The notes: a model not told the origin generated them from the sequence alone. A stretch of DNA of 64,000 nucleotides from an uncultured virus (IMG/VR IMGVR_UViG_3300002140_000103) (IMGVR_UViG_3300002140_000103), one strand, 5' to 3'; positions 14,730 to 29,930 are shown, counted from the stretch's first letter. Made by a program: numbers and translations.

Positions 14730-15743
14730 TTGTTTAAAAAAGCAGCAGTATTTACTGACATCCATTACGGTATGAAAGGTAATAGTCGTGTTCACAATCA
14801 AGATTGTGAAGAATTTGTTGATTGGTTTATTAAAAACGCAAAAGATAACGGTTGTGAAACTGGTATCTTTTGTGGAGACTGGAATCATAACCGTAATGCA
14901 TTGAATTTGACTACTATGGATTCAGGGTTACGTGCATTAGAAAAACTAGGTGCTGCATTTGAACAGTTTTATATGTTTGCAGGCAATCACGATTTGTATT
15001 ATAAAGACAAACGTGATGTAAAAAGTACTGAATTTGCAAAACATATTCCTGGTATTACAGTAATCAACGAAACATTTGTTAAAGACGATGTTGCACTAGT
15101 ACCTTGGTTAGTCGGCGATGAGTGGAAAAGCATTCCTAAGATAAAAGCAAAGTATCTTTTTGGACATTTTGAACTTCCTAGCTTCTATATGAACGCTATG
15201 GTTCAAATGCCCGATCACGGAGAACTTAAAAGTGAACATTTTGTTAATCAAGAGTACGTGTTTAGTGGTCACTTCCATAAAAGACAGGTTTTAGGTAAGA
15301 TTCATTACATAGGAAATGCTTTTCCACATAACTATGCTGATGCATGGGACGATGCACGTGGTATGATGATACTTGATAAAGAAAATAACAAAGATCCAGA
15401 GTACATTAACTGGATTGATTGTCCTAAGTATCGTACAACAACACTATCAAAGCTAATTGATGACAAAGATACACTTGTTAAAGACAAAATGTATCTAAGA
15501 GTTATAATCGATCTACCTATTAGCTATGAAGAAGCTACTTTTGTTAAAGAATCGTTTATTCAAGAGTATAATTGCAGAGAGATTACACTGATTCCTCAGA
15601 AGAACATCGAAGAATATAATTCTGCTGTAGACATTGGACAGTTTGAGAGTGTAGATCAAATTGTTAGTAATGAAATTATGTCTATCGACAGTGAAAATTA
15701 TAACAAATCACTTTTATTAAACATTTATAGCGGATTACAATGA
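14730..15743 (+). CDS. gp47: Recombination nuclease, Mre11/SbcD-like (TTG start)
   Basis: Metallophosphoesterase motifs TDIHYG, CGDW, GNHD, GHFE, SGHFH. Confidence 0.93.
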   Translation: MFKKAAVFTDIHYGMKGNSRVHNQDCEEFVDWFIKNAKDNGCETGIFCGDWNHNRNALNLTTMDSGLRALEKLGAAFEQFYMFAGNHDLYYKDKRDVKSTEFAKHIPGITVINETFVKDDVALVPWLVGDEWKSIPKIKAKYLFGHFELPSFYMNAMVQMPDHGELKSEHFVNQEYVFSGHFHKRQVLGKIHYIGNAFPHNYADAWDDARGMMILDKENNKDPEYINWIDCPKYRTTTLSKLIDDKDTLVKDKMYLRVIIDLPISYEEATFVKESFIQEYNCREITLIPQKNIEEYNSAVDIGQFESVDQIVSNEIMSIDSENYNKSLLLNIYSGLQ

Positions 15744-17518
15744 TCAAAATTCAAGACTTAACAGTTAAAAACTTTATGAGTGTGGGCAATGTTACTCAGG
15801 CCGTTAACTTTAATCGAGAACAGCTTACTTTGGTGCTTGGAGAAAACTTAGACCAAGGCGGAGACGATAGCGGATCACGCAACGGTACTGGTAAAACTAC
15901 AATCATCAACGGTTTAAGCTATGCATTGTACGGTCAAGCATTAACTAACATTAAAAGAAACAATTTGATTAACAAAACTAACAGCAAAGGCATGTTGGTT
16001 ACGTTAAACTTTGAAAAAGACGGCAACAGTTATCGAATTGAACGTGGAAGATCACCAAACGTACTTAAATTTTATGTAAATGACACAGAACAAGTTGACG
16101 ATTTAGACGATCACAGCCAAGGCGACAGTAGAGAAACACAAAAAGCAATCAATACACTGTTAAACATGAGTCACGATATGTTTAAACATATTGTAGCACT
16201 TAATACTTACACAGAACCGTTTCTTAGTATGCGTACCAATGAACAACGAGCAATTATTGAACAGCTTCTTGGAATTACCATGCTTAGTGAGAAAGCAGAA
16301 CTGCTTAAAGAGCAAGTTCGTATTACAAAAGATACTATCACAGAAGAAACTCTAAAGATTAATGCTATTCAAGCAAGTAACGAGAAGATTAAACAAAGTA
16401 TTGACACACTTATTGGTAGACAACGTGCTTGGGAAAGTAAGCGTAGACAAGATTGTAACAACCTTGCAGCTGGTATTGAAGAATTAGAACGAGTAGACAT
16501 TGACAAAGAGCTTGATGCACATGAAAAATTATCAAATTGGACTGAACATAATAATGCTATTAATGCTCTTAGAAAAGAATTAAGTACATTGGAGCCAGCA
16601 CTGCAACGTGCAGACAAAAGTGTTGAAAAACTTGTTAAAGATATTGCAGAACTTAATGATGCAATGTGTTATACATGTGGTCAAGCACTGCACGAAGATA
16701 AAAAAGCAGAAATTGCCGACTGTAAGTCTAAAGAACTTGCTGATGCAAAGACATATGCTCAAGAAGTTAATGCAAAATGTTCAGAAGTTATACTAGCACT
16801 AGCTGAAATTGGCGATATTAACGGCAAGCCTAATACATTTTACGAAAATGCTAAAGAAGCATACGAACATCGTAACAATGTAGATAATCTTCGTGTAGCA
16901 TTAGATAATAAACAAAAGGAAGATGACCCTTATCAATTACAAGTTGATGATTTAAACAACACAGCTATACAAAAGGTAAACTGGGAAATAATAAATCAGC
17001 TAACGTCACTGAAAGAGCATCAAGATTTCTTGTTGAAACTGTTAACAAACAAAGATTCATTTATTAGAAAAAAGATTATTGATCAAAACTTAGCATATCT
17101 AAACAACAGACTTACATATTATCTTGATAAGTTAGGCTTACCTCATCTAGTTGTGTTCCAAAATGACTTAAACGTTGAAATTACTCAGCTTGGTCAAGAT
17201 TTAGACTTTGATAACTTGTCACGTGGTGAAAGAAATAGACTCATCCTTGGGTTGAGTTTTGCTTTCCGTGATGTTTGGGAAAATTTATATCAAAATATCA
17301 ACTTGTTGTTTATTGACGAATTGATTGATAGTGGTATGGATGCGTCTGGTGTTGAGAATTCGTTGAGTGTTCTTAAAAAGATGGGTCGCGAACGTAATAA
17401 AAATATTTTTCTTATTAGTCACAAAGACGAACTGATTGGTAGAGTTAACAATGTTCTTAAAGTTATTAAAGAAAACGGTTTTACTAGCTACGAAAACGAT
17501 GTTGACATTGTAGAATAA
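15740..17518 (+). CDS. gp46: Recombination ATPase, Rad50/SbcC-like
   Basis: KNFMSVG, Walker A NGTGKTT, zinc hook CYTCG within coiled coil, signature LSRGE, Walker B LLFIDE, ISH. Confidence 0.94.
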   Translation: MIKIQDLTVKNFMSVGNVTQAVNFNREQLTLVLGENLDQGGDDSGSRNGTGKTTIINGLSYALYGQALTNIKRNNLINKTNSKGMLVTLNFEKDGNSYRIERGRSPNVLKFYVNDTEQVDDLDDHSQGDSRETQKAINTLLNMSHDMFKHIVALNTYTEPFLSMRTNEQRAIIEQLLGITMLSEKAELLKEQVRITKDTITEETLKINAIQASNEKIKQSIDTLIGRQRAWESKRRQDCNNLAAGIEELERVDIDKELDAHEKLSNWTEHNNAINALRKELSTLEPALQRADKSVEKLVKDIAELNDAMCYTCGQALHEDKKAEIADCKSKELADAKTYAQEVNAKCSEVILALAEIGDINGKPNTFYENAKEAYEHRNNVDNLRVALDNKQKEDDPYQLQVDDLNNTAIQKVNWEIINQLTSLKEHQDFLLKLLTNKDSFIRKKIIDQNLAYLNNRLTYYLDKLGLPHLVVFQNDLNVEITQLGQDLDFDNLSRGERNRLILGLSFAFRDVWENLYQNINLLFIDELIDSGMDASGVENSLSVLKKMGRERNKNIFLISHKDELIGRVNNVLKVIKENGFTSYENDVDIVE

Positions 17519-17533
17519 AGAGCATATAGTTAA

Positions 17534-17782
17534 ATGATAAACAACGATATACATGATCAACTTGTAAAAGAATATTTACAATATTTTAAGGCAAACGAGG
17601 CATTTATAGCAAGTCCTTCGGAGTTAAAACGTAGGACTGCTCGAAAACACTTGAGTAACATTAGGCAACTAGCAAAAATTAGGCGTAAAGAAATTATTGA
17701 TCACCATGTTGATAAGTCAAGATGGAATAAGGCAGGACTAGATCCAAAAGTGGCACGTGAGGCTAAAACTAAAAATAACTAA
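17534..17782 (+). CDS. Small basic helical protein, possibly Hc1/histone H1-like DNA-binding
   Basis: 82 aa; KRRTARKHLSNIRQLAKIRRKEI basic amphipathic helix. The family call is tentative. Confidence 0.4.
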   Translation: MINNDIHDQLVKEYLQYFKANEAFIASPSELKRRTARKHLSNIRQLAKIRRKEIIDHHVDKSRWNKAGLDPKVAREAKTKNN

Positions 17783-17785
17783 TGT

Positions 17786-18217
17786 ATGAATTGGACATAC
17801 AAAGGTAAAGAAGTTACAGAAATCTCTGAGGAGTTTGAAGGCTTTGTATATCTAATAACCAATTTAACAAATAACCGCAAGTACGTAGGCAAAAAGTTAG
17901 CAAGATTTAAAACTACCAAACCACCACTCAAAGGCAAAAAAAATAAACGTAGAGGCTACAAAGAAAGCGATTGGCGAGACTATTGGGGATCGTCGGATAA
18001 ACTTAATGAAGATGTAGCAACACTAGGCACTGTTAAATTTACAAGAGAAATAATTTATTTTTGTAGAAGTAGAGCTGAACTAAGTTACCTTGAGGCAAGA
18101 GAACAATTCGAACGTAGAGTCCTAGAGACAGATGAGTACTACAATGGTATCATTAACGTTCGTGTAGGCGGTAGTAAAATATTAATTGAAAATTTAAAGG
18201 CACAACAGGCTATATAA
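17786..18217 (+). CDS. Minimal GIY-YIG (Seg-like) nuclease, catalytic domain only
   Basis: GFVYLITNLTNNRKYVGKK, YWGSS, F.REI, LEAREQ, YYN; 143 aa with no C-terminal DNA-binding repeats. Confidence 0.8.
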   Translation: MNWTYKGKEVTEISEEFEGFVYLITNLTNNRKYVGKKLARFKTTKPPLKGKKNKRRGYKESDWRDYWGSSDKLNEDVATLGTVKFTREIIYFCRSRAELSYLEAREQFERRVLETDEYYNGIINVRVGGSKILIENLKAQQAI

Positions 18218-18694
18218 GGGACACTGAAGAAACTCCAAGAGTCAGCCGAGGTAATGCTCGTAGCCGGTGGTGTGGAGAGTCCCCGTGCAGAAGCATACGT
18301 AGGCTTTAAAAGATTTGGGCTCTGAGAAAAAGCAACCCGCAGGCAAGTGATTTCGCTTAATAAGGATTAACTGCCTTCCGTTGATATGTCGAATCGAGAA
18401 TAGGGGGATACCGGTCAACCGCCTCCACTTAATGTTAAGTCAAGATTACATTAATCAGTTTAATGTAACGTTGAGATAACATTAAAATTTCTTTTATTAA
18501 GATGATTGAAGCAACTCGAATGATGTTATTCAGTTATGTTCGCCCTTGCGCGGGCGAATTATGACTTCACAATCTGAATGATATTAAAAGCATATGCCGT
18601 TAGCATATGCCTTAGTAGTATTGTAATCACAAATACTTAATACGAAGTAAATGTATTGAGCGATAGCGATAATACAGTTGAACGTAGTTCGACT
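18218..18694 (+). ncRNA. Putative large structured non-coding RNA/DNA element, family not recognised
   Basis: Largest intergenic gap in the window (521 nt); many nested stems, several with G-U pairs on the + strand, and a loop-to-distal 8-bp complement (see findings). Confidence 0.65.
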
Positions 18695-18738
18695 TAAAAG
18701 AACATAAATAATAAAAACAAGTTTAAGGATAGTTCAGA

Positions 18739-19365
18739 ATGAAAATACATGATCTTAATGAGAATATCGAAATTGATGAATTTCTAGGTTTACCTGCATT
18801 GACTAAAAAAGGTAGAATGATTCAACAAGGAAATAAAGCAGTCAAGGGTGTACTAAAAGATGAACTACGTCAGATGGAAGTTGAATTGGCCATCTGGATG
18901 AAACAAAGCGGAATAGCGCAACTAACTGCTGATGACTTACAATCATATCTTGATCAAAAAGGATTAGGCGAAATAGGTCAGCCGGTTATAGCTGCATTAC
19001 CTGCTAAAGCAGATGCTAAAGCAGCTAAAATTAAATCAGCAGCAGATGCTAAAGCAGCTAAAATTAAATCAGCAATTGCAGCAAAACAAGCAGCAATGGC
19101 ACGAGGTGGAATCAAAACTCCAACTGTTAACAACCCTGCACCTACTATGGCAACTGTAATGTCAAGTATGTATTCTGAGAACATTGAAGAAGCTCAAGGG
19201 ACTAGTGCGTTATCTAAAAGAGAAGTACGTAATATATTGAGTACTGTTTTACAAACAGCATATAAAAAATCAGCTGGATTTAGTAAAAGTTCATTTGCAA
19301 ATCAACTTGTTGCAAAAACAAAACCACCTGCTTTTAAATCTTCAAGACCTAAAGCTAAAGCATAA
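18739..19365 (+). CDS. Hypothetical Lys/Ala-rich late protein (possible internal head protein)
   Basis: 208 aa; late promoter CATAAATA at 18703-18710; SD AAGGA; N-terminus MKIHDLNE. Confidence 0.6.
   Translation: MKIHDLNENIEIDEFLGLPALTKKGRMIQQGNKAVKGVLKDELRQMEVELAIWMKQSGIAQLTADDLQSYLDQKGLGEIGQPVIAALPAKADAKAAKIKSAADAKAAKIKSAIAAKQAAMARGGIKTPTVNNPAPTMATVMSSMYSENIEEAQGTSALSKREVRNILSTVLQTAYKKSAGFSKSSFANQLVAKTKPPAFKSSRPKAKA
19008..19073 (+). repeat. Perfect 33-bp tandem duplication (ADAKAAKIKSA x2)
   Basis: agcagatgctaaagcagctaaaattaaatcagc at 19008-19040 and 19041-19073. Confidence 0.9.
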
Positions 19366-19366
19366 T

Positions 19367-19597
19367 TTAAAAAAACGGTTGATTTGTTTTCTTAGCAGTG
19401 TCTAAGTTCTCTTTAATAAGAGTAGCAATAATTTCTCTTTCCTCGGGACTAGTATTATATGCCTCGTCAAGAGACATACCGCCTCGCATAAACCAGCACA
19501 TCTTAGTTAAGTCGTATTTGAGTTGTTTACTGTTGTCTTCAAGGATCTTAACTTCAGCAAGAATCTGCTCAATTGGCCAAGTTAAGATCCTTAGGCG
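19367..19597 (-). CDS. gp51-like baseplate/tail assembly ORF, probably the -1 frameshift extension of the gp26-like gene (absent from the ORF track)
   Basis: Open 76 codons RLRILTWPIEQILAEVKILEDNSKQLKYDLTKMCWFMRGGMSLDEAYNTSPEEREIIATLIKENLDTAKKTNQPFF*; first ATG only at 19501. Confidence 0.7.
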   Translation of the reverse strand, partial: RLRILTWPIEQILAEVKILEDNSKQLKYDLTKMCWFMRGGMSLDEAYNTSPEEREIIATLIKENLDTAKKTNQPFF

Positions 19598-29481: not shown

Positions 29482-29536
29482 AGGTGTGCTGCAGAGCAGA
29501 CTTATGCGGAAACCCGCCGCGTAGACCTAGAACGTC
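29482..29536 (+). ncRNA. Putative structured 5' leader RNA (three-way junction)
   Basis: GC-rich stems between late promoter GATAAATA (29464-29471) and SD AAGGAG (29541-29546); see findings. Confidence 0.55.
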
Positions 29537-29552
29537 ATTTAAGGAGAAAACA

Positions 29553-29930
29553 ATGGGACGTCCACTAAGAAAAGATATACTTGGAGTAGATGTTATCGGT
29601 ACATACGTAAGTAATACCGGTGTAAGAGTTGAGTTATACGATGGCTCACTAAGAACAGATGGTATTATTATTAAACAACGCGGCGCTTTAACTTTTGTTG
29701 TAGCAAGAGTAGGAACACCTACTGTACTATCTACGTGCGTATTACAAAATAGTACACCTAATGCGTTAAACGAAATGCGTCTATTTGGTTATGCAGTATC
29801 AAACTCAGGTACTGAAGTAAACATTGCTAAAATTACTAAGCGTTTAGCAACTGACTTCTCAGGCAATAGATACACTTGGGTATTAGAAAACGATAGTTCA
29901 AACGATTATATTGTATTAACTGCAATCTAA
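29553..29930 (+). CDS. Hypothetical virion/head-associated protein (125 aa; start revised from 29475 to ATG 29553)
   Basis: Strong SD AAGGAG 6 nt upstream of MGRPLRKD...; the upstream extension is the structured leader. Confidence 0.7.
   Translation: MGRPLRKDILGVDVIGTYVSNTGVRVELYDGSLRTDGIIIKQRGALTFVVARVGTPTVLSTCVLQNSTPNALNEMRLFGYAVSNSGTEVNIAKITKRLATDFSGNRYTWVLENDSSNDYIVLTAI

Follow-up and report, generated by a model that had tools for sequence, protein, structure and literature searches.

What occupies the 520-nt gap that follows a small nuclease gene in the DNA of an uncultured virus, and does it act together with that nuclease? The gap lies in a stretch of 64,000 nt (IMG/VR IMGVR_UViG_3300002140_000103), referred to here as the window, and contains a conserved structured RNA of ~480 nt on the + strand (18218-18694), the first base of which directly follows the stop codon of the nuclease gene. 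Comparative evidence firmly places this RNA in a family of large structured RNAs that is both new and modular and that occurs in uncultured aquatic giant T4-like phages. The window itself is taken to be a piece of the genome of an uncultured aquatic giant T4-like phage, since the nearest cultured phages by gp46 are the giant phages Phosso, PA5oct and Atu_ph07 (identity at most 49%) and one of the related RNA-carrying records is a complete genome of 346,856 bp that bears terminal repeats.

Upstream of the RNA, genes for gp47-like (14730-15743) and gp46-like (15740-17518) nuclease subunits are followed by ORF82 (17534-17782, +), encoding a basic protein of 82 aa without a known family that is present in close relatives only, and a single-domain GIY-YIG nuclease gene of 143 aa (17786-18217, +). 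In front of ORF82 stands a strong sigma-70-like promoter (17502-17530, +), which is a consensus match only (11 of 12 positions, 17-nt spacer). Downstream, the gap is followed by a 208-aa ORF and then by an opposite-strand baseplate-hub gene; gene order in the neighbourhood of gp47, gp46 and this hub gene is conserved. A small conserved ORF of ~44-75 aa on the - strand (19367-19501) abuts the terminal hairpin of the RNA in a divergent group of relatives, and in the subgroup of the window the 208-aa ORF sits between the two. Within the 208-aa ORF, 33 nt (19007-19041) are skipped by the RNA contigs of two runs; the skip, where a stretch rich in alanine and lysine is repeated in tandem, is a length variant between strains. 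The sole Rfam match in the window is a freshwater-2 RNA at 29485-29555 (+), which scores 55 bits against a cut-off of 49.9 and lies directly 5' of a Shine-Dalgarno-like stretch and an ATG.

The + strand of the RNA folds at -104.9 kcal/mol (z = -3.48), a stability equalled by 1 of 100 shuffles, and the - strand gives z = -2.69; the G+C content at 18100-18400 is 0.44-0.48, compared with ~0.27-0.37 in the flanks. Covariation was assessed in a MAFFT alignment (A1) of 72 non-redundant sequences, in which sequences more than 92% alike were merged and one locus with a large insertion (L145) was left out. In the named structure 85.3% of cells are paired, compared with 73.9% in shuffles, and doubly changed cells number 420, compared with 121 in shuffles and 87-116 in slid controls; neither value was reached in any of 500 shuffles. 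Double changes are numerous in P3, P4, P5, H1 and P2 of the 72-row alignment. At five pairs G-U prevails (61, 55, 62, 61 and 70 of the 72 rows), and the many mainly G-U pairs identify the folded strand as the + strand. A preliminary description, made before any relatives had been compared, had proposed a large multi-stem non-coding RNA that begins at the base after the nuclease stop and had favoured the + strand on account of its G-U pairs; these proposals are borne out, and every stem that it listed is present in the sequence.

All elements of the structure lie on the + strand. The 5' domain (18218-18283), which is common to the type-B RNAs described below, comprises P1 (gggac/gtccc, 18218-22/18279-83), P2 (ctcca/tggag, 18233-37/18273-77; 82.5% paired) and P2a (cgag/ctcg, 18245-50/18257-64; 77.4% paired). 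It is followed by the P3 hairpin with a conserved 8-9-nt loop (18291-18306; 92.8% paired, double changes in four of four pairs), by P4, a stem that encloses a near-invariant internal loop (18316-18339; 97.9% paired, double changes in three of four pairs), and by the P5 hairpin, aggca/tgcct with an extension (18341-18376; 94.9% paired, double changes in 9 of 11 pairs). The P5 loop (18356-63) forms the 5' strand of a long-range pseudoknot, PK1, whose 3' strand lies at 18494-18501. In the MAFFT count P1 and PK1 are low (45% and 58.6% paired) because MAFFT shifts both, and alignment-free duplex tests of native against mismatched partners support both. Native P1 strands pair at -4.50 kcal compared with -2.24 kcal for mismatched ones, and the 59 distinct loop/strand pairs of PK1 give -5.41 compared with -1.84 kcal, with 0 of 1000 permutations reaching the native value in either case. 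PK1, which the preliminary description had noticed as an exact complementarity, is thus among the best-supported features of the RNA. The most conserved stretch is a core H-type pseudoknot (18380-18426), in which Pa (gttgat/gtcaac, 18380-85/18414-19; 98.8% paired) is interleaved with Pb (ggggg/cctcc, 18403-07/18422-26; 99.7% paired). Pa has no double changes and replaces U-G by C-G in 11 rows; Pb replaces G-C by A-U in 20 rows. The AT hairpin P6 that follows (18429-18485) is of variable length: every relative has a hairpin here whose length and sequence differ, short hairpins of other sequence being found in its place.

Behind the 3' strand of PK1 lie two modules, M1 (18502-18524) and M2 (18561-18582), each of which opens with a short a-block; a spacer and then CUC or UCU separate this from a b-block of 7-8 nt. 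In the window, M1 consists of an a-block at 18502-06, CUC at 18515-17 and the b-block X at 18518-24 (GAAUGAU), and M2 of an a-block at 18561-65, UCU at 18573-75 and the b-block Y at 18576-82 (GAAUGAU). Between X and Y stands the G+C-rich hairpin H1 (ttcgccc/gggcgaa, 18539-18558; 98.2% paired, double changes in three of seven pairs). Further 3', a hairpin at 18590-18610 is kept in 17 close relatives and absent from the divergent group. It is followed by H3 (18653-18675), where two GA dinucleotides flank a 2-bp stem and a 3-4-nt loop, a motif found in 90 of 92 members; the outer stem of H3 scores -4.51 compared with -0.39 kcal (0 of 1000 permutations) and its inner 2 bp covary. The terminal 8-bp hairpin H4 (18676-18694) has no U run behind it and folds in the 14 rows viewed; its 39-nt stretch has a mean MFE of -8.47 kcal over 90 rows. 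The stem that closes the X-bearing loop is supported (-3.23 compared with -2.30 kcal, 0 of 1000 permutations), and a closing stem for Y is not, the native value being reached by 146 of 1000 permutations; X appears to lie in a hairpin loop closed by a short covarying stem and Y appears single-stranded. Two further pairings were tried and rejected, namely a helix between M1 and M2 (native -5.27, mismatched -5.11 kcal) and the pairing of the b-blocks with an AAUCUC stretch proposed by RNAalifold, which is compensated in only two of nine close relatives. There is no conserved reading frame in the RNA, the median longest ATG-ORF being 30 aa, and a 20-aa ORF of the window's subgroup is out of frame in relatives, which excludes it as a conserved small peptide. 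In two respects the preliminary description needs amendment. Its 12-bp stem 18522-33/18574-85 is not conserved, as the closest relatives lack the 5' strand and the 3' strand is the Y block, and the end that it placed at 18590 falls short of the conserved element, which continues through H3 and H4 to ~18694. Its AT hairpin is retained as P6, with the variability noted above.

The two b-blocks are identical to each other within all 92 real members of the family. These members derive from 123 extracted RNA copies, which reduce to 110 distinct sequences and to 93 after merging of those at least 96% alike; one of the 93, L112, is a chance match. A pattern search recovers X = Y in 90 of the 93; two more have the identity with another flank, leaving L112. 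In the alignment X and Y are identical in 71 of 72 rows, and the odd row is a MAFFT shift that carries the same block twice by pattern search. Between members the block varies: type A shows 15 versions and type B adds another four. The identical alignment rows hold 14 block states, and a tree constructed with the X/Y columns left out requires no fewer than 28 changes of state. Position 6 of the block is invariably A, most members have UGA or UAA at positions 4-6, and five block types are without a stop codon. The X-to-Y unit measures 49-64 nt, and its lengths are not multiples of three. Mutual information between X and Y amounts to 0.70-1.08 bit, compared with at most 0.47 bit for any other column.

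A partner for the blocks was sought in cis and in trans. No complement of the block occurs at a consistent place within 555 nt or within +-1.5 kb, and a block pairs with its own RNA no better than foreign blocks do (-4.65 compared with -5.14 kcal); together with the mutual information, these complement searches and pairing comparisons rule out a cis partner. In the nearest genome the window's 7-mer has 20 sites in 146.6 kb, neither enriched nor depleted, at a density equal to that in three of four other records and about twice that in the fourth. For this one combination of genome and 7-mer, the 18 sites outside X and Y share no common context, and no complementary target was found in the 146.6 kb. 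A/G differences between X and Y are absent from all 92 members; as pairing of both blocks with one common RNA would permit A/G wobble differences, their absence counts against such pairing. No described RNA with twin identical variable blocks and no cis partner was found in the literature. The identity of the twin blocks points to a sequence-specific step, be it guidance, templating or twin-site processing.

Other loci have a different central core, type B. The 3' domain attached to it is that of type A, and several of these loci share the 5' domain as well. Two alternative central cores on the same 5' and 3' domains define a modular RNA family, and the type-B core appears to be conserved equally to that of type A. 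A model of the type-A central core (R1, 142 positions) gives 18 complete matches, 2 incomplete ones and 1 weak one (L068, 17.5 bits) in 80 close GIY-YIG loci. When two core patterns were applied to the 55 loci with at least 700 nt of downstream DNA, 17 proved to be of type A, 33 of type B and five of neither; by eye, four of these five are type-B variants and the fifth, L068, is a distant A-like form. Examples of type B are found at L001:3427-3990 and L005:3424-3790, and this core occupies the locus in at least 33 of the close relatives L001-L080. Six type-B loci yield a single, spurious snoRNA row in Rfam, and types A and B never occur in one genome among the five records tested.

Viral contigs from lakes and oceans carry the family in abundance. 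A 17-mer taken from the most conserved stretch, the region of the core H-type pseudoknot, retrieves at least 120 viral contigs. Relatives of the GIY-YIG protein in viral contigs number at least 597; 80 loci were kept, and in 17 of them the gap behind the nuclease gene is 70-82% conserved over ~480 nt (blastn). The RNA core is present in one copy per record in all five records counted, including the complete 346,856-bp genome. In bacterial genomes the 17-mer occurs at 121 places, and of the 80 examined 79 are chance matches, mostly in G+C-rich genomes. The sole real match among these 80 (L266, 155.9 bits) lies on a 148,417-base contig filed with a Haliscomenobacter sp. MAG, which is either a phage contig binned there or a hint of the host. 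Among cultured phages, none of 50,697 phage records matches by DNA (blastn with 591 nt and with the 91-nt core); at the PA5oct, Phosso and Melnitz loci model R1 reaches at most 10.3 bits with filters off, and X/Y-type repeats are absent. In Sinorhizobium phage Phosso an unannotated stretch of 1,015 nt near gp46 (L343:6910-7925), between a Holliday-junction resolvase gene and RNase HI, is G+C-rich and structured-looking and has no match to model R1. The RNA matches none of 4227 Rfam families at the gathering score; in Rfam 15 at E <= 10, the region 17400-18800 gives four weak matches, every one of them well short of its cut-off, the best at 20 bits against a cut-off of 36. No published description of the family was found in the literature. 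A 2023 catalogue of IMG/VR RNA motifs of 29-151 nt (PMC10690425) may hold fragments of the RNA.

The protein encoded directly upstream matches PF19835 (SegE_GIY-YIG) at E = 9.8e-34 over residues 3-123 and consists of the GIY-YIG domain alone, the minimal nuclease that had been recognised beforehand. Its AlphaFold model has a pLDDT of 82; the best Foldseek rows are the I-TevI catalytic domain, matched weakly (E ~1), and phmmer finds no solved structure at E <= 1. The preliminary description had suggested that the RNA and this nuclease could form a ribonucleoprotein, with a ribozyme or a replication-primer RNA as alternatives. A linkage of the RNA with a nuclease gene extends across genomes. In 70 type-A loci that were found via the RNA sequence alone and have enough upstream DNA, a same-strand small nuclease gene lies upstream in 66, being of the GIY-YIG type in 58 and of the PD-(D/E)XK type in 8. 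The GIY-YIG gene directly adjoins the RNA in 47 of the 70 and is separated from it by one unrelated ORF in 11; four have no nuclease. Conversely, among the close GIY-YIG loci the 3' domain of the RNA is present in all 55 whose downstream DNA extends for 700 nt or more. The small nuclease genes to which the RNA family is tied encode two folds that are unrelated.

The PD-(D/E)XK gene, of 168-185 aa, stands in place of the GIY-YIG gene in L094, L100, L108, L127, L145, L148, L152 and L155, with its stop codon abutting the RNA; it matches PF24608 at E ~1e-25 in the three loci scored, the other loci having been assigned by tblastn. In L087, L096, L101, L133 and seven further loci, unrelated ORFs of 276-356 aa that match no Pfam family separate the RNA from the GIY-YIG gene, which makes this a variable cargo site. 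Homologues of the GIY-YIG protein occur in 551 cultured-phage records. The closest cultured homologue belongs to Melnitz (72.6% identity), and in all five isolates viewed (Melnitz, S-SRM01, P-HM1, phiN3 and ACG-2014f) the next gene begins 0-148 nt after the homologue, so that there is no room for the RNA; in cultured phages the protein family does without it.

Metatranscriptome contigs from three studies contain the RNA contiguous with the nuclease gene. These are assembled contigs from libraries that may include DNA, and they do not show transcript ends or strand. In one of four runs the contigs end at 18517 and resume at 18577, that is, at X and Y, which is at most a hint of possible processing. 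No X-to-Y joint is present in the contigs of the four RNA runs, contigs being apt to drop rare forms, and no intrinsic terminator was called.

The preferred reading, given a probability of roughly 0.3, is that the RNA works with the upstream nuclease and that the twin blocks provide a sequence specificity matched in both copies. The RNA would be made as the tail of an early ORF82/nuclease transcript, with its 5' and central folded part serving as a scaffold. X, in its hairpin loop, and Y, single-stranded, would form a matched specificity pair that is read in trans by base pairing or templating, and the upstream-encoded nuclease would use this specificity as a dimer with one block per protomer. 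An unlikely further proposal casts the RNA as the specificity subunit of a novel type of RNA-directed nuclease, with two 7-8-nt blocks, one per protomer of the dimer. Here a GIY-YIG or PD-(D/E)XK dimer would be mounted on the pseudoknotted scaffold, the target would be repeated or two-fold symmetric, and phages would retune the specificity by altering both blocks jointly. Counted against a role with the nuclease are the length of the blocks, 7 nt being short for a guide, the absence of any target found, the occurrence of the protein family without the RNA in cultured phages, the 11 loci with an ORF in between, and the four of 70 RNAs with no nuclease upstream.

Those four RNAs, and the 11 loci with an intervening ORF, lend some weight to an autonomous trans-acting RNA (regulator, sponge or decoy) whose adjacency to the nuclease is conserved gene order only, the twin blocks being two identical seeds or target mimics. 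The protein family is widespread without the RNA, and the genes near gp47, gp46 and the baseplate hub keep their order in any case, which also suits this possible, if doubtful, explanation; against it, 66 of 70 loci retain a same-strand small nuclease gene, and in eight loci an unrelated nuclease fold takes exactly the same place, stop codon abutting the RNA. The RNA might instead act in cis, as a 3' untranslated part of the nuclease operon; it would stabilise the message and end the transcript at H3/H4, with a host endoribonuclease cutting at single-stranded X and Y. Its first base directly follows the stop codon, contigs assembled from RNA libraries span both the gene and the RNA, and the two end hairpins stand where transcription converges from both sides. 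The contig breaks at 18517 and 18577 would also fit, although they come from a single run of assembled contigs. Such an element is nevertheless improbable, as a pseudoknotted covarying core of ~350 nt in two versions would be needless for message stability and the identity of X and Y through at least 28 changes would go unexplained.

That identity, which in 92 of 92 members extends over each of the 7 positions and is free of A/G differences, is what a template-jump or copy-choice element would require, in which a polymerase product of the X-to-Y unit (49-64 nt) re-anneals on the second block, and a stable hairpin does stand between the blocks. Its chance is nonetheless slim: genes for a reverse transcriptase or an RNA-dependent polymerase are absent from the stretches inspected, the length of the unit is not a multiple of three, and no joined form was seen in four RNA runs, though contigs drop rare forms. 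At the level of DNA, single-stranded hairpins and the twin 7-mers could serve the nuclease as its cognate site, or they could be the target of a homing endonuclease or the iterons of an origin. The locus alternates between two unrelated nuclease genes, and the Ssn/SRM pairs are a known case of single-domain GIY-YIG nucleases that have cognate hairpin repeats next to the gene (PMC11893778). A DNA site is very unlikely all the same, given a fold that includes pseudoknots and conserved loops, many G-U pairs peculiar to a single strand, nuclease genes that are near-universal and inherited with the RNA, unlike patchy homing genes, one copy per genome with no dispersed repeat, and the lack of any match to the published SRM pattern in the window. 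Translational bypass is known from phage T4 gene 60, where matched take-off and landing sites, with a stop after take-off, are separated by a gap of ~50 nt that contains a hairpin. The present RNA has the same sequence features, namely X = Y, UGA or UAA at block positions 4-6 in most members, and a gap of 49-64 nt with the hairpin H1, and many members have an AUG 15-17 nt 5' of X, so that ribosomes might start a mini-ORF at the a-block AUG and either stop at X or take off there, landing again at Y. This is extremely unlikely. The distance from AUG to X is 15, 16 or 17 nt, which does not keep the frame, and no frame leads into the take-off site or beyond the landing site; type-B RNAs have no AUG at that place, the same stop codon recurs at the landing block and leaves nothing gained, long ORFs are lacking (the median longest ATG-ORF being 30 aa), and five block types have no stop codon.

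With respect to known systems, the immunity RNAs c4 of phages P1/P7 and CI of P4 carry direct-repeat target boxes twice per transcript, with complementary boxes between them. The present blocks resemble these in being short direct repeats that change together between related phages, and differ in having no cis complement; nor does Rfam match the RNA. A group I intron is rejected, there being no Intron_gpI row even at E <= 10; in the divergent group the downstream gene is on the opposite strand, so that there is no 3' exon. The preliminary description had not recognised a tRNA or tmRNA, and ARAGORN likewise reports 0 genes in the 64 kb; a tmRNA in one or two pieces is rejected on this count and by the absence of Rfam tmRNA rows even at E <= 10. 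Methylophilales phage Melnitz and pelagimyophages have a two-piece tmRNA, in Melnitz gene 86 (PMC9004378); it too is a large pseudoknotted RNA of marine T4-like phages, and it lies at another locus.

Ssn nucleases are very small GIY-YIG proteins (94 aa, cd10448) that derive their specificity from a structured element beside the gene, with which they co-evolve, and that act on single-stranded DNA hairpin repeats of 20-50 nt present in many copies per genome (PMC11893778). The present locus is similar in setting a small GIY-YIG protein without a DNA-binding domain beside a structured nucleic-acid element, and different in that its protein is a PF19835 member and its element is ~480 nt long and single-copy. 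A search of both strands of the window with the degenerate SRM pattern as published gives 0 matches, shuffles giving 0.1. An Ssn/SRM pair is rejected, as no SRM motif flanks the gene and each of five records has one copy of the RNA core.

The OMEGA pairs, IscB with HEARO RNA and TnpB with its RNA, likewise set a structured RNA beside the gene of a nuclease without its own target-recognition domain, and a short variable stretch lies inside an otherwise conserved RNA (PMC9755519, PMC11061315 and PMC13565253). The nucleases are GIY-YIG or PD-(D/E)XK here and RuvC/HNH there, and the variable stretch is internal, 7-8 nt long and present twice here, whereas the OMEGA guide is terminal and ~16-20 nt long. 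No transposon ends were found. As in an RNA-guided nuclease, the RNA is encoded beside the nuclease gene (66 of 70 and 55 of 55 loci); the protein family is not RNA-dependent everywhere, the RNA having no space in five of five cultured phages.

Large RNAs of elaborate structure whose function is not known are a rarity, and several of those described earlier proved to be ribozymes, guide RNAs or self-assembling particles. GOLLD, ROOL and OLE are large ornate non-coding RNAs of bacteria and phages whose biochemical function is given as unknown (PMC12286853 and PMC9723947). They share with the present RNA a length of several hundred nucleotides, covarying helices, pseudoknots, invariant loops, a partly phage-borne distribution and their discovery by comparative analysis. 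The present RNA differs from them in having no match in Rfam 15 and in its interchangeable cores, its place behind a nuclease gene and its twin variable 7-mers, and the specificity step to which these twin blocks point is directly testable with synthetic RNA and two small proteins.
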